Below, piece by piece: positions 7,001 to 42,744 of a stretch of 44,234 nucleotides of DNA. The DNA lies in contig JAZKYN010000113.1 of NCBI GenBank assembly GCA_045612145.1, positions 1 to 44,234 of the forward strand, in the 5' to 3' direction. This DNA comes from Bacilli bacterium (GTDB lineage Bacteria; Bacillota_I; Bacilli_A; ML615J-28; CAG-313). A model generated the notes under the pieces. That model was not told the origin of the DNA and ran no database searches. It saw only the letters and a list, made by a program, of their open reading frames with translations. A program made the translations under genes and the position numbers. Positions within the stretch are counted from its first letter, which is position 1. Every line of letters begins with the position of its first letter.

Positions 7001-7040
7001 ACTTACATTTGTTGACCCAGATGAATTTTTAGAAAATTAA
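4005..7040 (+). CDS. Large acidic multi-module protein, 1011 aa, putative internal head protein (one TGA=Trp at 5139)
   Basis: Track ORFs 4005 and 5538 are in frame with only TGA 5139 between them; CxxC zinc ribbons; ferritin-like EHEAI..YE/EEIEH segment; recurrent LTE/LVE sites. Confidence 0.8.
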
Positions 7041-17861: not shown

Positions 17862-18308
17862 ATGTGAGATTTTAACTTCAATCAAGAAGATCAAATAAGT
17901 AAAGAACAACAAGAAGAACTGTTTACTACTTTAGTACAGAAAGCACTAAAAGGAGAACAGTCCGAATTCAGATTCATCGTTTGCTGACAAGACAGAAATG
18001 TTGTTAGAGAATATATTAGAGGAACTACAGCAACTGTTCAGATGTTTAATAATTTAATCACTAATCTTACAAAAGTATATGTAGATCAGATCGAGAAGAA
18101 CACACAGGATTTGGGGATTATGTTATCACTAAAACAATTCTATACTTGTAAGGATTATTATCAAAAAGAAAGAGAAATTGCCGAAGATATGTTAGACGAA
18201 TACAGATCATACATTTTCGGAGGGCATGTCTGAGATACTTTAGTGGGAAATACAAGAAAGGAAGAAGATATGGTAGATTATCGAACTCTACCTGTCAAGT
18301 GATTCTAA
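17862..18308 (+). CDS. Hypothetical protein, 148 aa (TGA=Trp at 17865, 17985, 18231, 18300)
   Basis: TATAAT and GGGGG RBS upstream; one frame fills the gap to TAA 1 nt before the next ATG. Confidence 0.75.
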
Positions 18309-18664: not shown

Positions 18665-20878
18665 ATGATAAACGTAATAAAAAGAGACGGAAAAGTAGTA
18701 GAATTTAATAGTGATAAAATTAAAACAGCTATTAGTAAATCTGCTGCTAGAGTCAACGAAATGTCAGAATCAGACATTGATCGCATTACAGAAATTGTAG
18801 TGAATAAATGTGAAAGAGCTCCTGGTGATCGCATCGGAGTTGAAGAAATTCAAGATTTAGTAGAAGACACTTTACTAAAATCAAAATTTAACAGAACCGC
18901 AAAATCTTATATCCTATTCAGAGATATGAGAACTCGTAACAGAGATAATAAATCAAAATTATTAAAAGACATTGCAAAGAAATTAAACGGAACTAATATC
19001 GTTAATCAAAATGCAAACTTAGATGAAGCTTCATTTGGTGGTAGAAAAGGTGAAGCTGCAAATGAATTAATGAAGTGGTTTGCACTAAATAACTGTATGT
19101 CTAAGAAATCTAGAGATAATCATCTGAACAATGAAATCTATATCCATGACTTAGATTCATATTCACTTGGAATGCACAACTGTATGAGTATTCCTTTTGA
19201 TCATCTATTAGAGAAAGGCTTCAATACTAGACAAACAGATATCAGACCGGCATCCTCAATTAATACAGCATTCCAATTAGTAGCAGTAATTTTCCAATTA
19301 CAAAGCTTACAACAATTTGGTGGTGTATCAGCAACTCACTTAGACTGGACTATGGTTCCTTATGTAAGAAAGAGTTTCTACAAACATATGGAAGATGGAA
19401 TGAAGTTTATGTGGAAAGGTGATATTAGACCAGTGTTCGAAAAAGACTGGCCGATCGATCATCCAATCTATAAATCATTTAGTGACTGTGGAATCTATGA
19501 CTATGCAATGGAAATGACAGCTAGAGAGTTGAATCAAGCTGTAGAAGGAATGTACCATAACTTAAATACATTACAATCTCGTTCAGGAAACCAATTACCT
19601 TTCTCTAGTATTAACTATGGAACTTGTACTTCAATTGAAGGAAGAATGGTAATTAAAGCTTTACTAGAAGGTTGTATTAAAGGTGTAGGTAAACATCACC
19701 GCACTTCTATTTTCCCTTGTGGCATCTTCCAATATATGAAAGGTGTTAATGACAGACCAGGAACTCCTAACTACGATATGTATCAATTAGCACTTAAGTC
19801 TACAGCACAAAGACTTTATCCAAACTACGCTAATGTAGACTGGTCAGGTAACGCAGGATATGATCGTAATGATCCTAAAACATATTTTAGTACAATGGGA
19901 TGTAGAACTGCTAATGGATTTGACATTAATCATGATGAAGGAGTTAATCCACAAACTAAAGATGGTAGAGGAAACATCTGTCCGGTAACAATCATCATGC
20001 CTACACTTGCTATGGAAGCAGGTAGAGATGTAGATTGCTTCATGGCTTTACTAGATACTAAAATTCACGAAGCGAAAGATATGTTGATCGAAAGATTCGA
20101 ATACATCTGCACTCAGGATGCAGGTGCTGCGAAGTTTATGTATGAAAATAATGTAATGTTAGGATACAAACCGGAAGAAGGAATTCGTTCAGCGCTTAAA
20201 CATGGAACATTGGCATTAGGTCAACTTGGATTAGCAGAGACATTAGAGCTTTTAGTAGGATGCAATCATACTAAACCAGAAGGTATGGAATTAGCACATC
20301 GAATCGAAGCGTTATTTAAACAAAGAGTTGCAGAATTCAAGAACAAGTATAAATTAAACTTTGGTGTTTACTATACTCCAGCTGAATCGTTATGTCATAC
20401 AGCTATGAAGAAGTTCAAAGATAAGTATGGCGAAATTGAGAGAGTTTCAGATCGCGAGTATTTCACAAACAGTATGCATGTACCTGTATGGGAAGAAGTC
20501 GATATCTTTACTAAAATTGATATTGAATCAGAATTAACTGGATATTCATCTGCAGGTTGTATTACTTATGTAGAATTAGATAGTTCTGCTAAGTCAAACT
20601 TAGATGCTTTAGAAACTATTGTTAATTATGCAATGGATAAAGATATTCCATACTTCGCATTAAACTTAAGAAATGATACTTGTTTAGATTGTGGTTACAC
20701 AGAAGAATTCAATGATCGTTGTTTAGAATGTGGTTCTACTAATATCCAACAATTACGTAGAGTTACAGGATATTTAACTGGAAATTACACTACTGCGTTC
20801 AACTACGGTAAACAAAAAGAAGTAGAAGACCGAATTCAACACACAAAGTTAACAGAAGGTTGGAAATCTAATGATTAA
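18665..20878 (+). CDS. nrdD: Anaerobic (class III) ribonucleoside-triphosphate reductase with N-terminal ATP cone
   Basis: VIKRDG ATP cone, IYIHDLD, HNC, MGCRT, TPAES, CLDC/CLEC zinc site, RRVTGYL glycyl-radical loop. Confidence 0.97.
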   Translation: MINVIKRDGKVVEFNSDKIKTAISKSAARVNEMSESDIDRITEIVVNKCERAPGDRIGVEEIQDLVEDTLLKSKFNRTAKSYILFRDMRTRNRDNKSKLLKDIAKKLNGTNIVNQNANLDEASFGGRKGEAANELMKWFALNNCMSKKSRDNHLNNEIYIHDLDSYSLGMHNCMSIPFDHLLEKGFNTRQTDIRPASSINTAFQLVAVIFQLQSLQQFGGVSATHLDWTMVPYVRKSFYKHMEDGMKFMWKGDIRPVFEKDWPIDHPIYKSFSDCGIYDYAMEMTARELNQAVEGMYHNLNTLQSRSGNQLPFSSINYGTCTSIEGRMVIKALLEGCIKGVGKHHRTSIFPCGIFQYMKGVNDRPGTPNYDMYQLALKSTAQRLYPNYANVDWSGNAGYDRNDPKTYFSTMGCRTANGFDINHDEGVNPQTKDGRGNICPVTIIMPTLAMEAGRDVDCFMALLDTKIHEAKDMLIERFEYICTQDAGAAKFMYENNVMLGYKPEEGIRSALKHGTLALGQLGLAETLELLVGCNHTKPEGMELAHRIEALFKQRVAEFKNKYKLNFGVYYTPAESLCHTAMKKFKDKYGEIERVSDREYFTNSMHVPVWEEVDIFTKIDIESELTGYSSAGCITYVELDSSAKSNLDALETIVNYAMDKDIPYFALNLRNDTCLDCGYTEEFNDRCLECGSTNIQQLRRVTGYLTGNYTTAFNYGKQKEVEDRIQHTKLTEGWKSND

Positions 20879-21473
20879 TTTTATTAAGAAGTCAGTTCTC
20901 GCCGGATTACTTATCAGTCTGGCGGGCTGAATTAAATTAAGCTGCAGCGATCCGATCGTTGGGTCAATATTATTTAGTGTTGGACTAATTAGTGTATTTA
21001 TGACCGAATCTAAATTATTTACAGGAGCTGTCGGTAATGTAAATTCAAAACGATCTATTTTCGAATTATTCCCGATGTTGGGACTAAATTTAGTAATATC
21101 AATCTTAATTGGATTATGTTATCAAGAAGTCTGCGGAACTTCAGATATATTTACTGAAAAAATGAAATTAGATCAACTTCAAATTTTACCAACTTTATTT
21201 AAAGGAGTCGGTTGTGGTGCACTAATATATTTGGCAGTAATGTTCTGAAAAACTGAAAAACAAATTCATCAGATCATTCCGGTAATATTATGTGTTGCAG
21301 GATTCATATTAGGTGGATTTGAACACAGTATTGCTTGTGCATTTTATTTAGGATCAAGCGTAACTACTGTAACAGAATTCTTTACTGGATTATTATATAT
21401 ACTAATAGTGGCAGTCGGGAATGCGATCGGCAGTTTAACTATTAGAGGTTTGTGGAAGGGGTTGATTAAATAA
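20871..21473 (+). CDS. Formate/nitrite transporter (FNT, FocA-like) channel, 200 aa (TGA=Trp at 20928 and 21246)
   Basis: SVLAGLLISLAG, GSILFSVGL, KLFTG, KGVGCGALIYLAV, FILGGFEHSIA, VAVGNAIG are the FNT signature segments; about six hydrophobic helices; overlaps the nrdD stop and the nrdG start. Confidence 0.88.
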
Positions 21474-21988
21474 TGAATTATTTAAGTCTAAATAAATCAG
21501 ACATCACAAACGGTCCTGGAGTTAGAGTATCTTTATTTGTGTCAGGTTGCACACACAGATGTAAAGGTTGTCATAATCCGGATGGGTGATCGTTCGACAA
21601 TGGTACTAAATTTAGTCAGTTTACTGTAGCAGAGATCCTCGATGCATTAGCGAAACCTCACATCAAAGGTTTAAGTCTGCTAGGAGGAGAGTGTTACGAT
21701 CAACCGGATTTATACTGATTAGTGAATTTAGTAAGATTGGCGAAAGAACATTATCCAACCAAAGACATTTGGGTGTGAACAGGGTATGAATTCGAACAAA
21801 TTAAAACTTCTCCACTAACTAGATATATTGATGTTGCAGTAACTGGAAGATTCATCTTAGAACAAAGAGACATCAGTGATAATAATAGATGAAGAGGATC
21901 TACGAATCAGAAGGTGATCGATGTTCAGTCCTCACTAAATAGTGGAAGAGCAGTCGCAGTAAGTGGCATCCCGAACAATGAGGTGTAA
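21473..21988 (+). CDS. nrdG: Anaerobic RNR activating radical-SAM protein, 171 aa (TGA=Trp at 21587, 21716, 21776, 21890)
   Basis: NGPGVRVSLFVSGCTHRCKGCHNPDG(W)SF, GLSLLGGE, KDIWV(W)TGY, (W)RGSTNQ; missed by the ORF track. Confidence 0.95.
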
Positions 21989-22708: not shown

Positions 22709-23029
22709 ATGAAAAAAACTAATTATATTGTTGCTGCTCATTATAATGGGGAAAATTATTTAGAAGATTGTTGTTTATTAGGTTGGAATAGTAGAGAAGA
22801 TTGGATTGATACTGATTATTATGGGGATGATATTACAACACCTGCTGGAAATATTAAAAATAATAAATATGGATTAATTAAAGTTTCAACTCACACATCT
22901 GTTTATGTTGGTGAAACTTATGAAAACTGTAAAACTTATTGTGATATGGGAAATCGTGAAGGTTTAGATTGTAGAGTTTGTAAAATTGAAAAAGATTCTA
23001 ATAATAATTTAATTGTAATTCCTGTTTAA
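22709..23029 (+). CDS. Hypothetical early protein
   Basis: Promoter, AGGGGG RBS. Confidence 0.8.
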   Translation: MKKTNYIVAAHYNGENYLEDCCLLGWNSREDWIDTDYYGDDITTPAGNIKNNKYGLIKVSTHTSVYVGETYENCKTYCDMGNREGLDCRVCKIEKDSNNNLIVIPV

Positions 23030-23106
23030 AGTACGTCAGTTTAATATTTACCAAAAGTATCTAATATGATATAATAATAATGTAAGAAACATTGGAGGAA
23101 ATTAAA

Positions 23107-23304
23107 ATGAAAAAATATGAAATTATGTTTAAAAATGGAAAGATTGAAATCTGGAACAGTAGTGATACAGAAGATTTAATTTATGAATTAGAATCTTTTG
23201 AAAGAGACGATGTCAATATGATTGATGAAATCGACGAAACTGGAGAATTTATCAGAAGAATCTGGACTGAAGAAGAAGGATTATTTGTTGGTTTAGATCT
23301 TTAA
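23107..23304 (+). CDS. Small acidic early protein
   Basis: Promoter, GGAGG RBS. Confidence 0.8.
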   Translation: MKKYEIMFKNGKIEIWNSSDTEDLIYELESFERDDVNMIDEIDETGEFIRRIWTEEEGLFVGLDL

Positions 23305-23321
23305 AAGGAAGGAAACTAATT

Positions 23322-23597
23322 ATGAGTACTAGTAATCAATTTGTTTGGAACTTTGAAGAAGGAACATTAAATAAGTTTACTTATCTACAAGAAGATGGTA
23401 GATTCGATGATATTGCGGATGAGATTCTAAGTAATACTAATTTAAGTACAGTATTTGTTGATGAAGTTCGAGGTATTATGTCAGACTATGATTATAATGA
23501 AGATAAGTTTAATGATGATGTCTTAATTGCGATTAGAATTATTAATGACAGATACGAATTAATTAAAGAAGAGAATGAAGAAGACACGTCAATCTAA
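23322..23597 (+). CDS. Acidic hypothetical protein
   Basis: RBS-like AGGAAGG, ORF. Confidence 0.75.
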   Translation: MSTSNQFVWNFEEGTLNKFTYLQEDGRFDDIADEILSNTNLSTVFVDEVRGIMSDYDYNEDKFNDDVLIAIRIINDRYELIKEENEEDTSI

Positions 23598-23653
23598 TGT
23601 GTCTTTTTATTTTATAATATGTTATAATTATATTGTAAGTGAGGAACAGAAAT

Positions 23654-23884
23654 ATGAAGAAAAGAACTAAGTTAAATTATGAAGAGTTAAATAAAAGAGT
23701 TAATGAAGTCTTTGATATGAACGAAGGAGAAAAATGTTATGGTTTGTTTGTTGAAGACAACGGAACTGTAAGAGTTTGTTTAGAAGACAGTGAATTAAAC
23801 GTATTTGACTATTTACCAAATATGACAGAAAGACCTGAAGCACTACAATATTTAATGGGTGAAAGAGATTCATTTTCAGATTAA
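23654..23884 (+). CDS. Hypothetical early protein
   Basis: Promoter, GAGG RBS. Confidence 0.75.
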   Translation: MKKRTKLNYEELNKRVNEVFDMNEGEKCYGLFVEDNGTVRVCLEDSELNVFDYLPNMTERPEALQYLMGERDSFSD

Positions 23885-23897
23885 GGAGGAAATAATT

Positions 23898-24059
23898 ATG
23901 TTTACAGATGTTGAAATTGAAATTTTAGACAATATAGTTTATATTGCAAATGACGGAAGTAGTGGTTGTAAATATAAGTTTAACAGTAAAGAAGAACTTA
24001 AAGAATATATTAACAACTATATGTCAGACTTAGTAGATTATTTATTGGAGGACAAATAA
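23898..24059 (+). CDS. Small hypothetical protein
   Basis: AAGGAGG RBS favours ATG 23898. Confidence 0.75.
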   Translation: MFTDVEIEILDNIVYIANDGSSGCKYKFNSKEELKEYINNYMSDLVDYLLEDK

Positions 24060-24060
24060 A

Positions 24061-24258
24061 ATGACTAAACAAGAATTAAACACATTAAGTGAATTACTAA
24101 TCAAATTACAAAATGAAAGATTACAAGAATATCGTGACGAAGGTTATGATATTGACGGTATGGACGAAGAAGGTATTATGGAATTAGATGATGGAGATAA
24201 TTTAATTCAAGGAATCGATACTGTATTTTGTGTAGTTCAAAGAATTAGGGGGAACTAA
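24061..24258 (+). CDS. Small acidic protein
   Basis: GGAGG RBS; tightly coupled to neighbours. Confidence 0.75.
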   Translation: MTKQELNTLSELLIKLQNERLQEYRDEGYDIDGMDEEGIMELDDGDNLIQGIDTVFCVVQRIRGN

Positions 24259-24259
24259 T

Positions 24260-24505
24260 ATGACAATTAAATTGAGTGGAAATAAAAAAGAAATTAATAC
24301 AAAACATTATTTTTTAATTGAAAAGACTTTCAGTGAACGTAGTTCAGGTTATGTAAAGATTTGTGAATCTTACGATGAAGCAGTTGAACAAGTACCAAAT
24401 TACGCAGACTGGTGGTGTAATAATGGAACTTGTACTGTAGTAGAAGTAGACAGTAATTTTAGAGAAGTTAATAAGTGGAGGTTTTGGAATGGCGAACTTA
24501 GATAA
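24260..24505 (+). CDS. Hypothetical protein
   Basis: AGGGGG RBS; coupled. Confidence 0.75.
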   Translation: MTIKLSGNKKEINTKHYFLIEKTFSERSSGYVKICESYDEAVEQVPNYADWWCNNGTCTVVEVDSNFREVNKWRFWNGELR

Positions 24506-24746
24506 AAAGATGTATGTAATTAAATTTAATAATGGTTTATATTGGTGTGGTTATAATACATCAGATAAACAACTTAGAAAAGCAAAAATCTATACTTCAA
24601 TTAAGTATGCTAGAGAAGTAGGGTTAGACTGTATTAGTAGAAAACAGTATGTCAGACCGTATGACTTTATGACGAAAACGGACGGATTTCAAATTATTGA
24701 AGTAGAATTAAAAGAAAAAGAAACGGTTGAAAGTACGTCAATTTAA
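24489..24746 (+). CDS. Hypothetical protein
   Basis: GGAGG RBS inside the previous gene. Confidence 0.75.
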   Translation: MANLDKKMYVIKFNNGLYWCGYNTSDKQLRKAKIYTSIKYAREVGLDCISRKQYVRPYDFMTKTDGFQIIEVELKEKETVESTSI

Positions 24747-24806
24747 TTTTTACAACTATAATTAAATATGGTATAATATAACTGTAGTTAAACAGGAGGA
24801 ACTAAT

Positions 24807-24983
24807 ATGTATTATGTTTATTTAGATTCACCGTACGGAACAGAATTAATCGGAAAGTCTACTGACAAATCTGTTGCAGAAAAAATTAAATCTGAACAAG
24901 ACTCTAAATGGGAAGTTGGATTTATGTGGAATACTAGAATAACTGAAAAGGAAGATCTAAGAGAAGTTAGTTATTATGACTAA
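24807..24983 (+). CDS. Small hypothetical protein, 58 aa
   Basis: Promoter, AGGAGG RBS; below the track cutoff. Confidence 0.75.
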   Translation: MYYVYLDSPYGTELIGKSTDKSVAEKIKSEQDSKWEVGFMWNTRITEKEDLREVSYYD

Positions 24984-25001
24984 AAAATGAGGCAAATGTG
25001 T

Positions 25002-25460
25002 ATGACTGAAAAGGAACTTATTGAAAAAAGAATTAATGAACTTTATGAAACTGTGGCAAAAGCAGATTATTCTGATATTGGTTATTTAGTAAGTTATGGA
25101 AAATCTGGTAAAGGTCGAAAGATTGAGATTGTCCCAACTGCGACAGATAAAGTTCATCCTAATTTTTATATTATAAAACAACTAGATGAAACATTAAGTT
25201 GTTTAAACTTAAGAGTTGTTATAACACACAGGAGTAATAATTGGTGTCCATACATTGAACTAATTATTATGGTAGATGGTAAAGACTATCACAATTATAC
25301 AGATGCTGGTGACTTAGTTGTAAAAGAACTTAAAAGATATATGAGTATTGAATCAGACGAATTATTTAAACATATTAAAAATCTTGATACAGTTTCTTGT
25401 GCAAGAACTAAAGTTGCTCTTAGTCACGCATGTGCAACATTTAATATCTATATTTGTTAA
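25002..25460 (+). CDS. Hypothetical protein
   Basis: GAGG RBS, ORF. Confidence 0.75.
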   Translation: MTEKELIEKRINELYETVAKADYSDIGYLVSYGKSGKGRKIEIVPTATDKVHPNFYIIKQLDETLSCLNLRVVITHRSNNWCPYIELIIMVDGKDYHNYTDAGDLVVKELKRYMSIESDELFKHIKNLDTVSCARTKVALSHACATFNIYIC

Positions 25461-25544
25461 ACTAAAACACGTCAATTTAAACTTTACTTTAATTGAAAAA
25501 TATTATATAATAAGAATGTAAGAAATAAACAGGAGGAAATTATT

Positions 25545-25847
25545 ATGTCAAGAACTTATGCAACATTAACTGGAGGAAGAAGTACATTAACACAAAGAGG
25601 ACATGGTGACGGAGTTAGAGTCAGTTGTCAAAGTTGGGATGGAAGTGTAATTGTTAGTAATCGTTATGACTGTGACGATAAATTAGAACTAAGAATTGGT
25701 ACTAATGAAGGATCTGGAACTTATACAGACTGGAAATCAAATGACTTCGTCGGAACATTTGAAGAGTTTAAAGAATTACTAAAACTTCATCAAGATATTA
25801 AATCAGGTAGAGTTTCAGTTGTAAGACACAGAATTAAAAAACAATAA
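25545..25847 (+). CDS. Hypothetical early protein
   Basis: Promoter, AGGAGG RBS. Confidence 0.8.
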   Translation: MSRTYATLTGGRSTLTQRGHGDGVRVSCQSWDGSVIVSNRYDCDDKLELRIGTNEGSGTYTDWKSNDFVGTFEEFKELLKLHQDIKSGRVSVVRHRIKKQ

Positions 25848-25921
25848 GTCGAAATCACGTCAATTTCGACTTTACTTATTTCTTAAATTATTATATAATA
25901 TAAATGTGTGGAGGTTAGACT

Positions 25922-26254
25922 ATGAGATGTATTATTCCTAATAAAGTTAGATTTGTAAATGATTTAAATAAGGTAATTCCAACTTATAAAACTGGAATTG
26001 AAAAAATTGAATATAGAGTTTTTAAAAGTAATTCTGGTTATTATCAAGAATATCTAGTTGTGACTTACGACGGGGGAGCAATCGGTGTTAGAAATTGTAA
26101 TGGAAATTCTTTTACTTCAGTATTTGAAGAACTAACTAAAATGTTAGACGGTGGTTATTATGACGAAGTTCAAGATTTAAGAGACTTTGAAACTTACCCA
26201 AATTGGATTGAAGTGACTTTAGAACAATTAGATGAAGATTATCAAAATAGATAG
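25922..26254 (+). CDS. Hypothetical early protein
   Basis: Promoter, GGAGG RBS. Confidence 0.8.
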   Translation: MRCIIPNKVRFVNDLNKVIPTYKTGIEKIEYRVFKSNSGYYQEYLVVTYDGGAIGVRNCNGNSFTSVFEELTKMLDGGYYDEVQDLRDFETYPNWIEVTLEQLDEDYQNR

Positions 26255-26341
26255 TCTTCCAAAACACGTCAATTTAGATTTTACTTATTTGCTAAATTAT
26301 TGTATAATATTAATGTAAGGTAAATAAAGGAGAAAATATTT

Positions 26342-26581
26342 ATGGAACAACAAATAGATAGAAGAGACTTTAAAATGTATTGTAGAGAAGTCAGTAATGA
26401 TGGAAGTGAATTTGAATTAGTTTTCGAAGTAGATGGAAAAGTAGTAGATAAACAAACTGAATTCTGTTTTCAAAATATTTTAATTGAAAGTGAAGATTTT
26501 CTAACTAGAAATTGTGAAAAGTATGATTATGATTCTAGATATGATAGTTTCGAAATTAATTTAAATTATATTTTTTCATAA
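26342..26581 (+). CDS. Hypothetical early protein (paralog of 29037..29252)
   Basis: Promoter, AGGAG RBS; shared C..NILIE..EF/DF..R..EKY.YD/FD.RYD/RFD pattern. Confidence 0.8.
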   Translation: MEQQIDRRDFKMYCREVSNDGSEFELVFEVDGKVVDKQTEFCFQNILIESEDFLTRNCEKYDYDSRYDSFEINLNYIFS

Positions 26582-26695
26582 GATAAAAGAAAGTAAGATT
26601 GATTAAGTTCAATCTTTTTTTATTACGTCAATATCACTTTTACAAATAATTAAAAATATGATATAATATACTTGCAAATAAGGGAGGAAAGTATT

Positions 26696-27067
26696 ATGAA
26701 TAATCAAACTACTATACAACACGAATTAGATTTATTAAAAGCTAAATATCCTAATTGGGACTTTGAAGCAACTTTTACAAAAAAACATTCTAAAAAAGAT
26801 GTCGAAACTTTAATTAGAGAATTAAAACAAACTTATCCTAATTTCAAGATTTCAAAAGAAAGAACAAACTTCGGACTAAATACAATTATCATTAATATTA
26901 AGACAGATGAAGATATTGCTTACTATCATAATGATAATGTCGGATATGTTCATTTAAATTCAGTTTACAACACTTTAACTGATATAATTGAAGATACTTT
27001 AGTAAATGCAAAAGTATTTAGTTATATTGACGGAATTAGAAAATGTAGTTTTGAAATTAGATTATAA
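26696..27067 (+). CDS. Hypothetical early protein with an internal LK..YPN repeat
   Basis: Promoter, GGAGG RBS; LKAKYPNW / LKQTYPNF. Confidence 0.8.
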   Translation: MNNQTTIQHELDLLKAKYPNWDFEATFTKKHSKKDVETLIRELKQTYPNFKISKERTNFGLNTIIINIKTDEDIAYYHNDNVGYVHLNSVYNTLTDIIEDTLVNAKVFSYIDGIRKCSFEIRL

Positions 27068-27156
27068 TTTTTCAAAACACGTCAATTTAGATTTTACTTT
27101 TAACTCAAATCAGTATATAATATAAATGTAAATAAAAAAGAGAGGAAATTAAAACT

Positions 27157-27366
27157 ATGGAAAACATTCAATTCGTAAAAGTCAATTCATCAAACGTTCA
27201 AGAAATCGGTCACGACGGAACTAACTTATATGTTAAATATAAGTCAGGAACTTATGTCTATGAAAATGTAGACAAATCAATTTATGAAGGTTTATTAAGT
27301 TCGGACTCTAAAGGAAAGTTTATGAACGAAAACATTAAAGGTAGATACAACTACTCAAGAGTTTAG
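27157..27366 (+). CDS. KTSC domain protein
   Basis: VNSSNVQEIGHD...LYVKYKSG.YVYENV...YEGLLSSDSKGKFMNENIKGRY matches the KTSC pattern. Confidence 0.88.
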   Translation: MENIQFVKVNSSNVQEIGHDGTNLYVKYKSGTYVYENVDKSIYEGLLSSDSKGKFMNENIKGRYNYSRV

Positions 27367-27464
27367 GTCTTCGAAAGAAGATCTTTTTTTACGTCAGTTT
27401 TTATTTTACATTTATATTAAAAAATGATATAATTATAATGTAAGAAAGAACGGGGGAAACTATT

Positions 27465-27914
27465 ATGAAAAAAGTATTTATTAATTACACTGATTATTCA
27501 AACGGAGAATGGATTGATATTCACTACATTGGAACAGACATTAAAGAGTCTATTGAAAAGTTTAAAGAGAACTTAAAACAAAGTTTATCTAGTGGACCGG
27601 ATGATCAACACACATTTTATTTAGTTGAAGTAAACTTAAAAAATAAAGATTATGATAGATTATTACAAGTAAAACAAAATGAGTCATTATATGATTCTAA
27701 TATTATTGAAGAGTTTGAAAGTAATTATAAGTTTAAAACTATTTGTTGGGATGATCATTCTGGAAACTTAGAAATTATTAGAATGTATTGTGAAGATAAT
27801 AATTTAGATTATGATGACGATGATATTTATCAAGATGTATGTGACTTACTTTGGAATGAAAATGACGAATTATATAATATCTATATCGACAAATATATTA
27901 AGAAAACATTTTAA
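27465..27914 (+). CDS. Acidic hypothetical early protein
   Basis: Promoter, GGGGG RBS. Confidence 0.8.
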   Translation: MKKVFINYTDYSNGEWIDIHYIGTDIKESIEKFKENLKQSLSSGPDDQHTFYLVEVNLKNKDYDRLLQVKQNESLYDSNIIEEFESNYKFKTICWDDHSGNLEIIRMYCEDNNLDYDDDDIYQDVCDLLWNENDELYNIYIDKYIKKTF

Positions 27915-27940
27915 GACTAGTTAATTCTAGTCTTTTTTTT
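27914..27940 (+). terminator. Intrinsic terminator
   Basis: AGACTAG-TTAATT-CTAGTCT followed by a T-run. Confidence 0.8.
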
Positions 27941-27959
27941 ATTTACTTTTTTGGATAAT

Positions 27960-28078
27960 GAATCGAATCGATTCGGGATGGGGGGGTGGAAGTACTTCAC
28001 ACTAAATTTAGTATGGAATAGTTCGGATTCAGATCGATTCGTGATCAACGAAAACGATCTGTTTTGGACGGTCGGATA
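27960..28078. repeat. GATC/GAWTC-rich intergenic block 1 with ACTAAATTTAGT palindrome
   Basis: Palindrome 28001-28012, GGATGGGGGGG, three GATC and five GAWTC; related to the blocks at 32045 and 34000. Confidence 0.7.
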
Positions 28079-28150
28079 GTACGTCGACTATTGATGTACT
28101 TTTTTCTGTTTTTGTAGTATAATATATTTGTCAATCAAGGGGGAAAACTT

Positions 28151-28534
28151 ATGTCAAACAATATTTCTTATTCAACACATTCTTATAACATTCAAAACTT
28201 AACTCAAATTAAACTATCAACTTTAAACTCAACTTTTTCTAATCAAATTAATTACTTATTAAACTTCTACAAATCACACAAAATTAAACATTTAAACTTA
28301 TCAACTTCTTATCAAATTACTCTAACACTTTTAAACTCTTCTAATCTTGACTTATTAAAACTTATTTCATTATTAACTTATTTAAACTTTAATAATATTA
28401 CAAATCCAACTAACCTAACTTCATTAATTAATCAACTTCAATTTACACCAAACTCACAATTAATTCTAATTGATTCTATTTCTGAAATTGGAGAAATTAT
28501 TGAAACTAATTATTATTTTAAAACTTTAGATTAA
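28151..28534 (+). CDS. N/L/S/T/I-rich protein encoded by an almost G-free sequence
   Basis: Promoter, AGGGGG RBS, terminator; C-terminus aligns with the 23107 protein. Confidence 0.65.
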   Translation: MSNNISYSTHSYNIQNLTQIKLSTLNSTFSNQINYLLNFYKSHKIKHLNLSTSYQITLTLLNSSNLDLLKLISLLTYLNFNNITNPTNLTSLINQLQFTPNSQLILIDSISEIGEIIETNYYFKTLD

Positions 28535-28635
28535 TTTCTAAAGTTTTTTTATTACTTAAGTACGTCAGAAGTTGATTTACTTCTTTACTAAAATGTAGTA
28601 TAATATATTTGAAAAAAATAAAGGAGAAAACAATT

Positions 28636-28950
28636 ATGAATAAAAAAATGTTATTATTAAGTATTTTAAATAATCCAACTAAAAGTCAAAATCAATATGT
28701 AGTGAGATACGATAGAGGAGATGAGTATGGATACTATTGTGAAGGTGTATATTATGGTAAAGATGGTTTTGAAGTATTAGAGAATGTTAATAAGTTTAAA
28801 ATATTTAGTTATGAAGAAGTTAAAGAATTAGATTTTGAAGACTTAAATGAAGTATTAAGAAGAGAATGTGATTGTGAAGATTTAGAAGTTAATTTTGAAT
28901 ATATTAGTTTATATAATTTAGTTTTGGAATATTTAATAGAAACTTTATAA
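28636..28950 (+). CDS. Hypothetical protein, C-poor coding sequence
   Basis: Promoter, AAGGAG RBS. Confidence 0.75.
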   Translation: MNKKMLLLSILNNPTKSQNQYVVRYDRGDEYGYYCEGVYYGKDGFEVLENVNKFKIFSYEEVKELDFEDLNEVLRRECDCEDLEVNFEYISLYNLVLEYLIETL

Positions 28951-29036
28951 AACTAATAATTAAGAAAGTACGTCAATTTGGGATGTGCTTTTATTTTTAT
29001 ATATGATATAATATATTTGTAAGTGAGGTAAGTAAT

Positions 29037-29252
29037 ATGAATAAAAGAGTATTTGAAATTAAATTAGAAGTTATTGGTATTGATGTATTAATGTTAATTT
29101 TAAGATGTAATGGAGAAATATTAGAAGTTTTAGAAGAAGATTGTATTGATAATATTTTAATTGAAGTTGGAGAATTTTATAGTAGATTAGAAAAGTATAA
29201 TTTTGATTTAAGATTTGATAAGTTAAAATTAAATATTGATTTTGAATATTAG
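29037..29252 (+). CDS. Hypothetical protein encoded with no cytosine (paralog of 26342..26581)
   Basis: Promoter, GAGGT RBS; no C in 28989-29339. Confidence 0.7.
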   Translation: MNKRVFEIKLEVIGIDVLMLILRCNGEILEVLEEDCIDNILIEVGEFYSRLEKYNFDLRFDKLKLNIDFEY

Positions 29253-29416
29253 TTTAAATTAAATAAGTAAATATTAAGTTATAATTATTATGTGAATATA
29301 TTGAAGTAGTAGTTATAATTTAATATTTTTATTTGAAGTCACGTCAATTATTACTTTACTTATAGATTAAACTATGATATAATATATAATGTAAGAAAGA
29401 GAGAGGAATAAATATT

Positions 29417-29710
29417 ATGAAAATTAGAACAATTGAAAATGAAGAAATTATTGTAAGATGTGAAGACAACAGTGACGTTGAAATTATTAGTAAAAGTACA
29501 AATAGAAATTATGTAGTTTATGAATGTGTAGGACCGATCGACAATTCTAGAACAGATATGTATGTAGTATTTGATATGACAGATGAAAGTGAAAGTCCAG
29601 TATTAGTTGACTATATATTTATTTGTGGACCGACTGAAGAATTAGAAGACTATTTAGACTTTGATGTTTACATTAAGGAATATGAAAAGAAATTAAGTAC
29701 GTCAATCTAA
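29417..29710 (+). CDS. Acidic hypothetical early protein
   Basis: Promoter, GAGG RBS. Confidence 0.8.
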   Translation: MKIRTIENEEIIVRCEDNSDVEIISKSTNRNYVVYECVGPIDNSRTDMYVVFDMTDESESPVLVDYIFICGPTEELEDYLDFDVYIKEYEKKLSTSI

Positions 29711-29771
29711 GATGTACTTTTTCTTTATAATGTAGTATAATAATATTGTAAGAAAGAAAGAGGAAATAATT

Positions 29772-30038
29772 ATGTACAACACAAAACTATTAAACAAATT
29801 TTATGAAGCTTTATTCTCAACTGATTTTAATGACTTTGAAACTGCAACACAAAACATGAAGACAGATTGTTTAGAAACATGTACAGACTTTGATTCTTGG
29901 ACAAATAAGTTAGTAGATACTTTTGTTGAAGAATATGATGTAGACAAAAATCAATTAGTTCAAGACATGAAAAACGATTCTAACTTTATGGAAGACTTAA
30001 GATTTGAATACGACGACTTAGTTGATATGTTAGATTAA
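29772..30038 (+). CDS. Acidic hypothetical early protein
   Basis: Promoter, GAGG RBS. Confidence 0.8.
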   Translation: MYNTKLLNKFYEALFSTDFNDFETATQNMKTDCLETCTDFDSWTNKLVDTFVEEYDVDKNQLVQDMKNDSNFMEDLRFEYDDLVDMLD

Positions 30039-30130
30039 GTTTTAAAGTACGTCAATTGTTGATGTACTTTTTTCTTTACTTTTGATATAATATATTTGTA
30101 AGTTGATTACAGAAAGAGAGAAATAAAACT

Positions 30131-30427
30131 ATGAATAAAATAAATAAAATCTTAAATAATGTTAAAGAAGAAAGTAAAGACTTAGTAAAGTCTGAAATGA
30201 CTAGAGTACAAAAAGACTTTAGTAAATTAACTGAAGACGAAAAAGAAACTGTTTACTGTACTGTCGGAACAATCGGATTTGTATTTGATGATATGTCTGA
30301 ATATGAAATTAACAACACTCCGGTTCAATTTGATGAAGATGTATTTTTAGATTCTTTAGACGAAAATACTAAAATAGATTTATGTACTTTAGTTGTTGAA
30401 TATTGTACTGAAGAAGACTGTGAATAA
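30131..30427 (+). CDS. Acidic hypothetical early protein
   Basis: Promoter, ORF, terminator after the stop. Confidence 0.8.
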   Translation: MNKINKILNNVKEESKDLVKSEMTRVQKDFSKLTEDEKETVYCTVGTIGFVFDDMSEYEINNTPVQFDEDVFLDSLDENTKIDLCTLVVEYCTEEDCE

Positions 30428-30516
30428 AACAGTCTTTTTTATTTTACGTCAATTCAAGATATACTTTTTTCTTTAGTTGTGATATAATATAAATGTAAAT
30501 GAGTGAGGTAAGTATT

Positions 30517-30672
30517 ATGGTTAAAGTTAAATTTGAATATCGTGACGAAATGTCAAAAGGTGAATGGAGGCAACAAGAATGTATTGTTAGTTCCGTTCAA
30601 GAATGTAAAAGAATTTATGGTTTAGGAATTGATTGTGAGTATAGAATTATTGATGTTAAGGAGGTAAAATAA
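30517..30672 (+). CDS. Small hypothetical protein, 51 aa
   Basis: Promoter, GAGGT RBS; below the track cutoff. Confidence 0.75.
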   Translation: MVKVKFEYRDEMSKGEWRQQECIVSSVQECKRIYGLGIDCEYRIIDVKEVK

Positions 30673-30673
30673 T

Positions 30674-30847
30674 ATGTTTGAACTTAGATATGGTTATCAT
30701 CGTGATAATATAGAGAAAAAAGAACTCTACGATAATCTTGACGTTGCAAAAGCTGAAGCTTTATATCGTTCAGACAAACACTTTGCTTATGATTTTGTAG
30801 TCTTAACAAATGTAGATGATAATATAGTTCTTTATGAACGATATTAA
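30674..30847 (+). CDS. Small hypothetical protein, 57 aa
   Basis: AAGGAGGT RBS; coupled to the previous gene. Confidence 0.75.
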   Translation: MFELRYGYHRDNIEKKELYDNLDVAKAEALYRSDKHFAYDFVVLTNVDDNIVLYERY

Positions 30848-30945
30848 GTAAAGAGAATATTAAATATCAAGTAGAGTACGTCAGATAGTACTTTACTTTT
30901 TCTTTATATTAATGTATAATATAATTGTAAGGGAGGAAATTAATT

Positions 30946-31269
30946 ATGAATAACTATCAAGAAGCATTAAATAATGTTAAAAGAGTTTATGTAGAAAGTG
31001 ACCATTATGATGAAGAAGATATTAGACTACTACAAGAACTTGTAGACAGAGAAGTTCCTTTAACTCCGACTTATAAAAATACTTATATTGAACATAAAGA
31101 ACATTATTTAGATAAAGATTATGAAATGAAGTATCATTGTCCAAAGTGTGATTCAATAGTTTATCCAATTGGTAGATGTAGTAAGTGTCATCAAAACTTA
31201 GATTGGAATAAGTATTATATTATTGAAGTGGAAGACGGACATACTTATTATAGAAATAGGAGGGATTAA
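30946..31269 (+). CDS. Zinc-ribbon phage protein
   Basis: CPKC...CSKCHQNLDW. Confidence 0.8.
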   Translation: MNNYQEALNNVKRVYVESDHYDEEDIRLLQELVDREVPLTPTYKNTYIEHKEHYLDKDYEMKYHCPKCDSIVYPIGRCSKCHQNLDWNKYYIIEVEDGHTYYRNRRD

Positions 31270-31270
31270 C

Positions 31271-31555
31271 ATGAGAGATTGTTATAATAGAATTACACCT
31301 AACTTTGAAGAGTGGGAAAAATTAGGTTGGATTTGCACAGAGATTCATGAACAAACATTTACACTTTCTAGACCAGATGATTGTTATTTAGACTTCGACC
31401 AAATTGTTTTCGAATTATATGAAGAAGATAAGACTCCAAAAGTATGGAAAGAAAACATTAGTTTAGATGGTTGTAGAAAGTTAGATTTTACACCTGAAGA
31501 ACAACTTCAAGTAAATAAAGATATTCAAAACTACTATGAAGAAATTAAAAAATAA
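31271..31555 (+). CDS. Hypothetical protein
   Basis: AGGAGG RBS favours ATG 31271. Confidence 0.75.
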   Translation: MRDCYNRITPNFEEWEKLGWICTEIHEQTFTLSRPDDCYLDFDQIVFELYEEDKTPKVWKENISLDGCRKLDFTPEEQLQVNKDIQNYYEEIKK

Positions 31556-32505: not shown

Positions 32506-32841
32506 ATGATTAAAAAAGCAATATTAAAAAAATTAACTAAAGAACAAGCAGCAGCAATTATCAGTAAAAGTAAATACTTAACACGTGACTATGAAGCATT
32601 TGTTGATGACTATGAATTCGGCGACGTCGACAGTGGTTTCGGTCAAGGTAATTTCTTTACATTAGACGAAGATAAAACAAAAATTGTAATCCAATGGTTA
32701 GACGACAATTATACTGCTTATGAAATTATTGTTGATAGTTTAGAAGAATGTATTGTTAGACTTAAAGAAATTGAAGACTGCGAAGGTAATGTTGATTTAG
32801 ATAAATCAGAAATTGTAATTGATAGTTATAAAATGGACTAG
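32506..32841 (+). CDS. Hypothetical protein (paralog of 34525..34845)
   Basis: Shared TKE.A..IISK, GF..GNFFTLD.D.TK.V.QW, DSLEE. Confidence 0.8.
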   Translation: MIKKAILKKLTKEQAAAIISKSKYLTRDYEAFVDDYEFGDVDSGFGQGNFFTLDEDKTKIVIQWLDDNYTAYEIIVDSLEECIVRLKEIEDCEGNVDLDKSEIVIDSYKMD

Positions 32842-34524: not shown

Positions 34525-34845
34525 ATGACAGAATTAAAAAGATATACAAAAGAAGAAGCACAAAAGATTATTTCTAAACATGCAGATATGATTTCAGACA
34601 TTGAAGACTTAGGTGAAGATTATAATAATGGAACATTAAATCACGGTTTCAGTTGTGGTAACTTCTTTACATTAGACACAGATGAAACTAAAGTAGTTGT
34701 TCAATGGATGATTGATGGTGATAATGCAACAGAAGCAGTTGCAGATAGTTTAGAAGAATTAGTAGTTTGGTTATATGTTATTGAATACTACGGTGGCGAA
34801 TGTAAATTAAAAGACGGTAAAGTTGTTTGTCTAACACGTCAATAA
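34525..34845 (+). CDS. Hypothetical protein (paralog of 32506..32841)
   Basis: Promoter, GAGGT RBS; clear similarity to the 32506 protein. Confidence 0.8.
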   Translation: MTELKRYTKEEAQKIISKHADMISDIEDLGEDYNNGTLNHGFSCGNFFTLDTDETKVVVQWMIDGDNATEAVADSLEELVVWLYVIEYYGGECKLKDGKVVCLTRQ

Positions 34846-35049: not shown

Positions 35050-35104
35050 AAAAATACGTCAGTAATTACTTTACAAAATAAAAATAATATTGTATAATAT
35101 ATAT

Positions 35105-35737
35105 GTAAGGTTGATAAGGATGAGCTTACGAGAGGGCACAAGAGTATACGGCATCGTAAGAAACTTCACAATTGTAAAAAGATTCCGCGTCCGGCTCTGA
35201 TGCGATAAGTCTTACCTTACTTAATATATCTTCTGTGTAAAGAGTTTATTATTATATATAGTAAATTGTTTAGGCCGAAGATATACGTGTCGAGGCGTAT
35301 TTATAGCTCAATACACTACTGTTGTATAACAGCAAATATTGAATACTATAATGGAGCAAGGGTAGCGTCAGCGGCGCAAGTTTGCAGGTAGCATGTAGGA
35401 GAAACCTGAAGTATTAGATAGGAAGTCCGGAGCCGACAAGTGGTGTGAGTCCACTTCTAATGCGATACCATATCACCAACCCCTGGTGGGCAAGAGCGTA
35501 GTTCATTGTGTGGTTCAATTCCACAGTGGTGCCGTCTGAACAACGAGAGTTCAAAACACAAATAGTTTAACGAGGCATGTAAAGTCCTACGTCGTAGTTT
35601 GGGGCCTAAGAAGTAGTTGCAAATACTTCGTGTTAAACTTAACTTTGAGGATTACTTGTTTATACTTGTTTCATATATTTACTCCTTTCTGCGGCGAAAG
35701 CCATAAATTAGACATTCTATATTAGAGTGTCTTTTTT
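35105..35737 (+). ncRNA. Large (~630 nt) structured non-coding RNA with two tRNA T-arm-like elements
   Basis: Own ACGTCA promoter (TATAAT 35093) and terminator (35710-35737); no ORF; raised GC; helices 35105-11/35214-20, 35125-31/35154-60, 35225-33/35277-85, 35564-71/35632-39; T-arms 35438-56 and 35509-25; GGC-GAAA-GCC. Confidence 0.8.
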
Positions 35738-35877
35738 ATTTGTACGTCAGTTCAAACTTTACTTTGAGATATATTTATTATATAATTATATTGTGAGTAG
35801 CTATTATTGTATAAAAAATGTAAAAGTTTATTGTATAATATTATGAATGCAAAGTAAAGCAGTAGGAGGTATTCAAT

Positions 35878-40264: not shown

Positions 40265-41527
40265 ATGGACGATAAAATTATTAAAACATATACTGACTAT
40301 ACTGTCTTTATTGAAGACCCTGTTTTAGACTGCTATTATTGAATAGAAAATTTTTCAGAAGATGACGGACATACTAAAGAAGAGGCTCTTGACTATGCTA
40401 ATAAATTAGCTATGGCAATCGAGAACTATGACGCAGGTGTTTGAGTAGAAAAACGCTTAGTCACTGAATATGAAGACTTTGGACCTGACGGTGGTGAAGG
40501 AGATCCTAATCCACAAGTTATTTGGAAGTCTTATAATTTAGAAGATGTCGACGTTGGCGAAGGTTATTTTGATACTGACGGTTATCCTAATCTTCCTGAC
40601 GAGTTTATTAGTAATGATACAGAACAAAATAAAACTGAAGATGAAGAACCTGTTGAAGATGAAGTTATTTCTACTTGCACAGACTGACATGTATTTGTTA
40701 AAGATCTTAAGTCTGGTGACTACGACTTTGCAAAGGAATTTTCAGAAGACTGAAATAATACTAAAGAAGACGCAATTAAGTATGCTCAAAAAATAAATGA
40801 AACTACAGATTTTGCTACTTGAGTTGAACAAGTTATTGTTACTACTTATAGAGATTTCGGTCCAGATGGTGGAGAAGGTGATCCTAATCCTAAAGTTGTT
40901 TGGAAATCTCCAGAACTTAAAAATGTTAAAGATAATGATTTAGAACAAGGTGATTATGGAAATCTCTGAGACGAAAAATATTCTAAAGCTTTTACAGAAT
41001 CACTAGAAGAAAACTTAAGTAATGTTAAGTTTGAATGATTAAATAAACAAGCAGAAGTAATTTATCCTTTTGAAGAAACTGATGAAGAAGGATATCTTTT
41101 AGTTGATTACGGCGCAGGTGTATGCAATACTTTAGTTGCTAATGATCTTGTAAATATTAATATTGATGTATTAGTAGACTTTAGTGATGTAGATGTGGGC
41201 TATGATCCTGGTTATGAAAAGAGTGACTGGTGACAAACTATTACTATTGATACTTCAGGTTATATTGTAGAATTTAATTCTGTGAATTATAGAGTTACAT
41301 ATGAATCAGCAGAAACAGAAGACCACATTACTATTGATGAAGCAGCTACTATTCTAGGTATTACTAAAGATGAACTACAAGCTGAAGTAGATCGTAGATG
41401 TAAAGAATTATATAAAAACAGTGTAAGTAAAGTAGAAGATATTTATCTTGATGATTTAAAAGAAAGAGATGCAGAGGCTTATGTAGATGCTCATGCTGAC
41501 GACTGATATGATACTAATTGAGACTAA
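40265..41527 (+). CDS. Acidic repeat-domain protein, 420 aa (10 TGA=Trp), putative virion internal protein
   Basis: AAGGAG RBS; one frame with TGA at 40340, 40442, 40685, 40751, 40820, 40967, 41036, 41231, 41504, 41519; DFGPDGGEGDPNP.V.WKS occurs twice. Confidence 0.85.
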
Positions 41528-41544
41528 GAGTTAGGAGACATATT

Positions 41545-42744
41545 ATGATTAAAACCGAATTCATGAATTTATATGAAGAGTTAAATACTTTAAATGAAGC
41601 GACTAGCCCAGAAGTACAAGCTTTTTATAAGTCTTTAAATGTTAGAACTAAAGACCCAGTAGATACTGAAAGTTTTATTAAAGCTTTTAAGAAAGATATT
41701 CCAGATAATATTTGAGACCAATTATTTACTGTTGATATGAGACTTAAAAATAGAGGTACTTATGGTGTTATAAAGAATGGAAATTTACCAGCAGAAGTAA
41801 CTACCGCATTAAAGAAATACTGAGCTTTCCAATTTGCTTCTAATGTAACTTGGTTTGAAACTACAACTATGATTGCTAAAGAAGAAGAAGCTAAAAGAAA
41901 AGAAGAGGAAGAGAAAAAAGCTCAAGAAGAAAAACTACTTAGTGATGCAAAAGAATACATAGATAGAGCTAATCATGTTCTTACTTTAGTTGATAAAACT
42001 GCAATGCAAAGAGTACTTGACTTAGCAAAAGAATTAGAACCAAACTCTTTTAATAGACTACAACAAACTCCTAAAGTTAAGATTGGTTACTATAATAATA
42101 GTCGAAGAGAAAAATATATAAATATAGATATTTACTTTTATGATTTTTTAATAAAGGTATATGATAGTGGTAGTAAGCATATACCAACAGAACAAGAAAT
42201 AGTAGATGACTTTAATAGTTCTGTTCTAAATGAGATACGTAGATGAGAAGCTATTAAAGCAGAAATATTAGCTAAACAAACTCGTCAAGAAAAATATAAG
42301 AATGCTAAATGATATAGTGTAGAATTTGAAAAATGAGCTTCATCTAATAAAGAAGGTATTTTCTTATTTCAATTACCAGATGATGAAGGCATTCAAAGAC
42401 TTACTAGATTAAGTTGAGATATAGTTGAACGTTGTCGCTTTACTGATGATGTAGAGTTAATTGCTGTTATTACAGATTATGACCAACCAATGCGTAATCC
42501 TAATTCAGCTACAGAAAATAGTTACTACTATAGATATTATAGTGTAAATAGTAAAGCTGATCCAGCCGACTTAGAAGATGAAGGAATATTATTAGATCCT
42601 AGTAAGTTTGTAGATAAGTCTACTTGAGGAGAACAAACTTATAAAGAAATAAGTAAAGGTAGTATTAATAATCACTCTGGCTATTTTATTACTGGAATGG
42701 ATAGATGATTTAAATACACAAGTGAGACTTACGGTACAGAATAA
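41545..42744 (+). CDS. Hypothetical protein, 399 aa (8 TGA=Trp), putative virion internal protein
   Basis: AGGAG RBS; TGA at 41713, 41821, 42244, 42310, 42334, 42415, 42625, 42706; N-terminal FMNLYEELNTLNEA propeptide-like segment. Confidence 0.8.

Follow-up and report, generated by a model that had tools for sequence, protein, structure and literature searches.

A GpC-depleted island of early cassettes, with genes that exclude G or C, in a phage-like contig from the cattle gut

Why would adjacent genes on one strand do without opposite bases? The stretch analysed here (the window) is an entire metagenome contig of 44,234 bp, C113, from a bin of 165 contigs (1.69 Mb, 88% complete) assigned to a Bacilli bacterium. 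Near its position 28.5 kb lie three small genes, called genes 1 to 3 below, of which gene 1 is almost free of G, gene 2 is poor in C and gene 3 has no C. A preliminary description of the sequence read this as cytosine lost from opposite strands on either side of one point. We found that the three genes sit inside a larger island in which one dinucleotide step, GpC, is nearly absent from coding and non-coding DNA.

Counting bore out the composition that had been described. The 318 nt from 28154 to 28471 contain 131 A, 64 C, 122 T and one G, which opens an Asp codon at 28349. No C was counted in the 351 nt from 28989 to 29339, and the C-poor gene between has 9 C in 315 nt (28636-28950), or 10 in 342 nt if started at TTG 28609. 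The longest G-free runs in the region measure 195 and 122 nt and the longest C-free runs 351, 107 and 100 nt; the runners-up elsewhere in the window reach 52 and 85 nt, respectively. Maximum runs were 139 nt (C-free) and 133 nt (G-free) in the remaining 164 contigs of the assembly, and 76 nt (C-free) and 84 nt (G-free) in a 50-kb cultured-phage stretch of near-equal base composition. The assembly has 2755 open reading frames (ORFs) of at least 60 amino acids; the poorest in G is gene 1, and the poorest in C are genes 3 and 2. An assembly artefact was ruled out, as the same property was present on independent metagenome contigs and in 30 protein records.

The letter bans exceed amino-acid choice. 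Given the protein and the codon usage of the window, the G-free part of gene 1 has one G-bearing codon where about 9.8 were expected (P ~10^-4.6 over synonymous choices), and gene 3 has no C-bearing codon where about 11.8 were expected (P ~10^-6). The 135 nt of non-coding DNA in unit 3 likewise contain no C (P = 3.7e-6).

At the DNA level, the window was compared with three related metagenome loci, L010 (95% protein identity), L011 and L012 (75%). Gene 1 has 30 homologues at 72-98% identity, one of them on a contig of 128 kb. Residues that require G number 0-4 in each of the 22 close homologues aligned over about 106 positions, in all 50 of about 2320 (2.2%, versus a background of 41%), and almost all are Asp. 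More distant relatives from a profile search have 10-26% G-requiring residues; the whole gene 1 family therefore leans G-poor, with the branch of the window as its extreme. The G-free runs are kept in the three loci (204+122 nt and 189+128 nt). For gene 2, 27 homologues were found at 70-91% identity; the 16 that were aligned have 4-13 C-requiring residues each (4-7 in 15 of them), and the gene has 10-12 C in the related loci. The 351-nt C-free run is the same in L010, and five full-length homologues of gene 3 (72-97% identity) have no P, H, Q, T or A.

Substitutions showed the same restriction. Between the window and L011, 67 of 383 aligned bases of gene 1 differ and G is involved in 5 of these differences, compared with 69 of 153 (45%) and 41 of 104 (39%) in flanking genes. 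Nucleotide identity to L011 was 82.5% and 90.8% for genes 1 and 2, and 64% and 60% for their neighbours. Orthologues whose proteins are 72-96% identical obey the bans too, even at synonymous positions and in non-coding DNA, which indicates that the bans in genes 1-3 are kept by selection and are not a product of decay.

The exclusion of GpC reaches well beyond the three genes. Between 27009 and 28986 no GpC was found where 25.2 were expected, a GpC-free interval (27008-28987) of 1,979 nt; the GpC at 28987 is the sole one between 27008 and 29808. Observed/expected ratios per kb across the wider domain were 0.28, 0.39, 0.47, 0.41, 0.07, 0.08, 0.19 and 0.41, and both these values and the cumulative curve centre the GpC valley near 28.5 kb. 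CpG in the domain was as expected, and GpC elsewhere on the contig varied between 0.6 and 1.5 of expectation per kb. The rest of C113 and the other contigs of the bin carry the reverse signature (GpC about 1.0-1.2, CpG 0.4-0.7). In controls, the longest GpC-free interval was 945 nt on host contigs (GpC 1.20 and CpG 0.57 of expectation), 341 nt on G019:C46, a contig of another bin (GpC 982 versus 888 expected), and 423 nt in TR-TP2 (GpC 1155 versus 1005 expected). No genome among those searched had GpC near zero.

The depletion concerns the adjacent step alone. The flanks of the island have ordinary G and C: 27009-28150 has no GpC and 29 CpG (19.1 of each expected), and 29340-30570 has 2 GpC and 18 CpG (18.8 of each expected). 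Gapped pairs of the form G(N)kC, with k from 1 to 6, occur at 0.8-1.9 of expectation, and a gapped G...C or C...G word was rejected as the target because none is depleted in the island. A window-wide k-mer check revealed no strong strand-specific avoidance, and word avoidance across the genome was rejected.

Coding DNA, non-coding DNA and codon junctions are all covered. Seven intergenic stretches of the core (724 nt) have no GpC (11.5 expected, P = 1e-5). By codon phase, GpC in the 31 other early genes was at 0.60, 0.26 (10 versus 38.8) and 0.21 (5 versus 24.0) of expectation, compared with 0.90, 0.77 and 0.81 in the large genes; alanine codons account for 66 of the 81 GpC across the 31 early genes. 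The price of the exclusion is a set of proteins nearly free of alanine, with 2 alanines among 803 residues in eight island proteins and 1 among 849 residues in eight proteins of L011.

The related loci show the same exclusion. GpC was counted 2 times in L010 (22-28 expected) and not at all in L011 across 2,913 nt (38.8 expected), a length that includes five cassettes upstream of gene 1, two of which are 60-64% identical to the window counterparts with which they were aligned. In L012, genes 1-2 lack GpC, after which the frequency moves toward normal. Purifying selection thus appears, from these comparisons, to maintain the exclusion of GpC from a conserved early island.

The spacer upstream of gene 1 contains the direct repeats GAATCGAATCGATTCGGGAT / GATTCAGATCGATTCGTGAT, and its first 215 nt (27915-28129) hold 19 palindromes of 4 or 6 bases that contain G or C. 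From 27941 to 28077 it has GAATCGATTCG-type repeats, a run of seven G, many GATC, TCGA and ATCGAT palindromes and no GpC. This part is missing in L011, where the spacer measures 84 nt.

Ten small genes of the window share one upstream unit, in which a stem-loop (AGTACGTC...GATGTACT) lies with its 3' arm over the -35 element and is followed by TATAATATAT. The pattern ACGTC-N28-38-TATAATATAT occurs in 10 copies in the window, versus 0 expected by chance. When four of the stem-loop boxes were folded, two were very stable (z -4.2 and -5.5), one was weak (z -1.4) and one did not fold. Transcript starts and ends are predictions throughout. Read in this way, genes 1-3 are self-contained early cassettes, each with a predicted sigma-70-type promoter and stem-loop, a strong ribosome site, a small gene and a terminator. 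Cassettes turn over among relatives: genes 3 and 4 are missing from L011 and L012, and one metagenome contig joins 28544 to 28982 and so omits gene 2. Other cassettes with the same promoter type have an ordinary composition (C 9-11%).

Features of the window. Counts are observed versus expected; promoters, stem-loops and terminators are predicted.
Feature	Position	Strand	Details
Core GpC-free island	27009..30570		GpC 3 (28987, 29808, 29844) versus 44.0, P = 1.2e-15
Wider GpC-depleted domain, about 30 small early gene cassettes	23000..31500		GpC 37 versus 124.8, P = 2.4e-20
Spacer upstream of gene 1	27915..28150	+	Non-coding, 236 nt; GpC 0 versus 6.6, CpG 12 versus 6.6
Gene 1 promoter and stem-loop	28078..28127	+	Stem-loop 28078-28100 over -35; TATAAT; motif copy; fold -9.8 kcal/mol, z -4.2; kept in L010 and L011
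Gene 1	28151..28534	+	127 amino acids; codons 2-107 (28154-28471) G-free save one Asp codon
Gene 1 intrinsic terminator	28520..28547	+	Hairpin and U run; conserved in L011
Gene 2 stem-loop box and promoter	28556..28608	+	Motif copy; TTTACT-17-TATAAT; about 95% identical in L011
Gene 2	28636..28950	+	104 amino acids from ATG 28636; C-poor
Gene 2 terminator stem-loop and gene 3 promoter	28964..29016	+	Stem-loop 28964-28992; -12 kcal/mol, z -5.5; motif copy; contains the GpC at 28987
C-free zone	28989..29339	+	First base past the final C of the upstream stem-loop, through the last base ahead of the next ACGTC box
Gene 3	29037..29252	+	71 amino acids, C-free; paralogue of 26342-26581
Unit 3 terminator	29259..29336	+	33-bp hairpin of A-U and G-U pairs only, U run; -22 kcal/mol, z -5.0, 0/200 shuffles as stable
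TGA-recoded genes	490-2202, 2204-2623, 4005-7040, 17862-18308, 20871-21473, 21473-21988, 40265-41527, 41518-42744		Code 4

Gene 1 is open over its length, with 0 stops in its frame and 11-27 in each of the five alternative frames; a minus-strand gene beneath it was rejected, those frames having 12-27 stops. An AlphaFold2 model built from 24 sequences was confident (predicted local distance difference test, pLDDT, 91.4; predicted template modelling score, pTM, 0.84), and a domain made only of F, L, I, S, Y, H, Q, N, K, T and P, an 11-letter alphabet, is therefore predicted to fold. Searches with gene 1 returned nothing above noise in PHROG, Pfam, Foldseek (PDB and BFVD), VIA-align and ESM Atlas, and genes 2 and 3 had no family match. 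The G of gene 1 are limited to the predicted start base and ribosome site, the ATG, the single Asp codon, and the terminator with the 20 codons that end the gene. The hairpin around which the composition had been said to switch is real (28520-28547, -10.4 kcal/mol, z -4.7, followed by a U run). The resemblance claimed between gene 3 and the gene at 26342 was also confirmed (18 of 51 residues identical; E 1e-10 pairwise, 1.8e-8 all-against-all). A proposed match of the gene 1 C-terminus to the ORF at 23092-23304 held as a weak similarity in a single comparison (12 of 36, E 1e-4) but gave no all-against-all match at 1e-3.

In unit 3 the usual GC-containing stem-loop (29335-29372) does not fold (0 kcal/mol), and a long hairpin without C precedes it; the terminator of this unit has therefore been rebuilt without C. 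Palindromes of 4 or 6 bases that contain G or C are absent from units 1 and 3 and number two in unit 2, both in its terminator, compared with 2-12 in neighbouring units. Unstructured mRNA was rejected as a shared cause: among 34 early genes gene 1 does have the least structure (-0.045 kcal/mol/nt), but gene 3 ranks 22nd (-0.160) and carries the 33-bp hairpin. Antisense pairing or an inverted duplication between gene 1 and genes 2-3 was rejected as well, since 34 of 300 shuffles scored equally.

The few residual letters counted above aside, G and C never stand on the same strand in genes 1-3, and therefore no word with both letters is possible in the three central cassettes. Taken as duplex, the G-free and the C-free genes would be one DNA state that differs only in which strand is coding, and the mirror image vanishes. 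The choice of coding strand probably follows which amino acids each protein can forgo. Our leading reading, offered tentatively and with a little less than even confidence, is that the DNA expressed first is hidden from a reader whose word of G and C is very short, minimally GpC. The island would be the first-expressed, and perhaps the first-exposed, part of a phage genome, and a factor that reads GpC would act on it in the first minutes of infection. Candidate readers would be a host restriction or defence nuclease, the phage's own nuclease that destroys host DNA, or a context-specific DNA modification that spares the first-read genes. Three pointers favour a reader of DNA over one of RNA: GpC reads the same on both strands, the CpG-enriched spacer that follows a terminator has none of it, and a single rule covers both gene types.

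A narrower version, which we regard as unlikely, takes the island as first-exposed DNA and the banned step as the specificity of an early enzyme for which GpC alone could be enough. Of most interest here would be the phage's own nuclease or base modifier, which might hit the GpC-rich host chromosome and spare the sole phage DNA present in the cell at that time. The three-letter cassettes could then serve as word-proof genes, expressible from genomes under attack in any host and able to ready the cell for sibling phages.

Several observations weigh against a reader of GpC in early DNA. No reader was identified: both methyltransferases of the window are of the N6-adenine type, and modification genes did not turn up. 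Packaging and structural genes are lacking from the 44-kb window, a fragment whose island lies mid-contig, with nrdD and nrdG on one side and a helicase-like gene on the other. ACGT, TCGA and GTAC occur at or above expectation in the island, in addition to the 19 palindromes of the spacer; other restriction-type palindromes are thus unavoided, those with a GC core alone are depleted, and general restriction avoidance was therefore rejected. Complete loss of G or C surpasses what a ban on GpC needs. Strand-specific signals suit a cause in RNA better: the C-free zone coincides with one predicted transcript, and the left flank is low in CC (1 versus 11.2 expected) but not in GG (43 versus 32.6).

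The same signals favour the explanation that early messages are kept free of a word or base cut by an endoribonuclease, either an mRNA interferase of a toxin-antitoxin or abortive-infection system or RNase Y, and so stay translatable until a phage inhibitor accumulates. We consider this rather unlikely, though the C-free zone runs from a predicted start site to a terminator that was itself rebuilt. Messages without ACA are translated in cells expressing MazF, and MqsR of E. coli cuts GCU and GCA, according to the part of the source consulted (PMC5408214). RNase Y cuts preferably after G in S. aureus (58% of 99 sites; PMC4608709), likewise in B. subtilis (10.1101/2023.03.12.532304), and is encoded in the binned genome (701 bits). 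Matches to the MqsR_toxin family occurred in 3 of 49 genomes of the bacterial family of the bin, with none in the bin's own genome, 88% complete, and 0 of 14 in control genomes, a search of doubtful sensitivity. The bin's own genome had no PemK/MazF family match. Cutting of RNA also fits poorly with the spacer between terminator and next promoter, which may be untranscribed and yet has no GpC. One G-free and two C-free messages would require two hazards unless the word has both letters, and the ribosome site of gene 1 retains 4-5 G in all three loci. Across the wider island, GCA and GCT make up most of the remaining alanine codons, whereas an MqsR-type cutter would leave GCG and GCC. Avoidance of Rho was rejected: its RNA-binding domain was found in 0 of 49 genomes of the family, the host being an assignment by binning.

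A hazard to transcription at single bases would act through a nucleotide in short supply or poisoned (depletion of GTP or CTP, chain terminators of the viperin type) or a template base that is damaged or modified (deaminated C, ADP-ribosylated G). It would suit an exclusion that acts on single bases, goes as far as the proteins permit, and affects cassettes that are each predicted to be an independent transcription unit. It leaves unexplained the flanking ban on GpC beside normal G, normal C and enriched CpG; adjacent genes would need opposite hazards, G is the predicted start base of gene 1 and occurs six times in its leader, and the ordinary cassettes behind the same promoter type escape. 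We judge it very improbable. Still less credence is due to mutation without compositional selection, whether by deamination of cytosine on one strand at an origin or end, transcription-associated mutation, context-specific deaminase hypermutation, or import from a donor with another dinucleotide signature. The C-lacking strand does switch near 28.5 kb, at the centre of the GpC valley, and AC is enriched (1.37-1.66) where GpC is missing, as G-to-A change in a GC context would yield; GT, however, is unenriched (0.86-1.06), and a donor finds no counterpart among the genomes searched. The proteins are intact (pLDDT of 91 for gene 1), genes 1 and 2 have changed less than the genes beside them, and the bans outlive substitutions in separate lineages. 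The ordinary C content behind the same strong promoter argues against transcription-driven mutation in particular.

The preliminary description had explained the skew by cytosine loss where a bidirectional origin or joined genome termini leave DNA single-stranded; this explanation was unsupported. Cumulative GC skew rises steadily from 0.07 to 32.6 over the contig with no large-scale reversal and a lone drop in the 300-nt bin 28201-28500. The skewed zones begin and end at gene or transcript borders, the missing G of gene 1 is replaced chiefly by C and T and not by A (C 20% versus 11.6% overall), and the bans outlast the 67 differences from the orthologue. Cassettes are gained and lost in relatives, each retaining its own composition, and G019:C46, which lacks these cassettes, has no such runs. 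What survives of the "one point" is that the GpC-free island is centred where the C-lacking strand switches; the skew of an origin or terminus is absent. Selection against a primase or nuclease motif had been named as another possibility, and its nuclease-motif part is close to the reading preferred here, so that the earlier interpretation is partly supported overall.

The gene content of C113 marks it as phage-like, with all sizeable genes on the plus strand. Family searches identified nrdD, an nrdG-like gene, an SNF2 helicase and two N6-adenine methyltransferases, and dozens of small genes crowd the interval of about 22-35 kb. The host assignment comes from binning, to which a related phage contig, found in another bin within the bacterial family, lends some support. 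This 45-kb contig, G019:C46 (L020-L022), has about 17 relatives of window proteins, including an nrdD 66% identical, which suggests a distant relative of the window phage; genes 1-3, the ACGTC promoter box and long base-free runs are absent from it, and its GpC is normal. Gene 1 is missing from all 48 other genomes of the family. Relatives of the window are present in cattle-gut metagenomes, with at most 28% of sampled words per run. The locus, gene 2 and the 744-amino-acid protein had no DNA or protein match in 50,697 phage records, and no relatives were found in IMG/VR or among GTDB genome contigs. In metatranscriptome contigs, gene 2 is represented at depth 2 and genes 4-5 are also present, which is insufficient to establish expression or transcript ends.

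Some genes of the window phage read TGA as sense (Trp). Under code 4 the nrdG-like gene (4 TGA) matches Fer4_12 over its full length (E 2.5e-42) and the SNF2 helicase becomes whole (5 TGA); ORF coverage of C113 rises from 64% to 80%, while the large contigs of the bin are covered to about 96% already with code 11. In-frame TGA is nearly lacking in the small early cassettes. This reading fits the stop-codon-recoded gut phages, as far as the consulted part of their description goes (10.1101/2021.08.26.457843). A formate/nitrite-transporter-like gene lies at 20871-21473 (+, code 4; PF01226, E 8e-18), between nrdD and nrdG. Formate is the reductant of class III ribonucleotide reductases, and the position of the transporter is suggestive for this reason.

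A KTSC-domain protein of 69 amino acids within the island (27157-27366, +; PF13619, E 7e-16) has no alanine and its gene no GpC. The small early genes at 32506-32841 and 34525-34845 are a paralogous pair (46% identity over 98 amino acids, E 4e-24). Some 640 nt at 35105-35745 (+) are ORF-free and higher in G+C (about 40%); they follow a copy of the early promoter box (35056-35102) and end in a terminator-like hairpin. This segment, which had no Rfam match up to E 1 and a fold z-score of -3.46 (20 shuffles), is possibly a large non-coding RNA. The bin holds two more phage-like contigs, C70 (L024-L026) and C101 (L027-L028), from two different phages; each carries a separate set of terminase, portal and major head or capsid genes, and C101 also has an integrase. 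Their CpG is undepleted (0.92 and 1.01 of expectation, versus 0.57 in the bin), they have no GpC-free island, and no modification genes were seen on either.

If the exclusion reflects a reader, infected cells contain some factor that distinguishes DNA or RNA molecules by words much shorter than the known restriction sites. Identifying it would add a new layer of phage-host conflict and would explain the odd look of the earliest phage genes. Composition alone could then mark first-acting, probably anti-defence, genes in uncultured phages. Gene 1 would in addition be a natural domain, confidently folded in prediction and encoded without G, that is relevant to reduced-alphabet protein design. We found no account of base-free or dinucleotide-free phage genes in the literature searched, which left subscription journals largely uncovered.

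Skews of GC at replication origins are modest, extend over whole replichores and are independent of gene borders. As at an origin, the G-richer strand of the window changes at a point; the change here, however, is absolute, reaches only about 0.3 kb leftward and 0.8 kb rightward, and stops at gene borders. The layout of the cassettes resembles the PeSL cassettes of the T4-type phages RB49 and phi1, in which a sigma-70-like promoter is fused to a stem-loop terminator (Arbiol et al. 2010, PMC2839356). Common to both, in the part of that account consulted, are a repeated strong promoter with a stem-loop, a Shine-Dalgarno site, a small gene without known function, and gain and loss of cassettes among relatives. 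The window differs in its lineage, its cattle-gut source, its recoded TGA and its stem-loops without poly-G or poly-C tracts, and no compositional ban was found mentioned in those parts of the PeSL account.

Similar to the interferase-proof messages described for MazF and MqsR, a transcript of the island would escape a cutter by lacking its word, and GCU and GCA both contain GpC. Those messages, in the excerpts consulted, are single and avoid words of 3-7 nt, whereas the ban in the window covers spacer DNA and all four GCN. The closest parallel to a reader of early DNA is found in phage entry. T5-like phages resist restriction-modification, CRISPR and Ssp if the sites are missing from the first-step-transfer region (PMC10644984), and in Autographiviridae escape from Type I restriction-modification is decided by absence of the motif from the first-injected region (PMC12455610). 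As far as the consulted portions of these two sources extend, their entry DNA and the window share a block of small early genes without a word that the rest of the genome may carry; the words avoided in those phages are sites of 5-13 bp of defined systems, and the order of entry was shown experimentally. The window, unlike them, avoids a dinucleotide and, in three genes, whole bases, at the cost of alanine and half the amino-acid alphabet.

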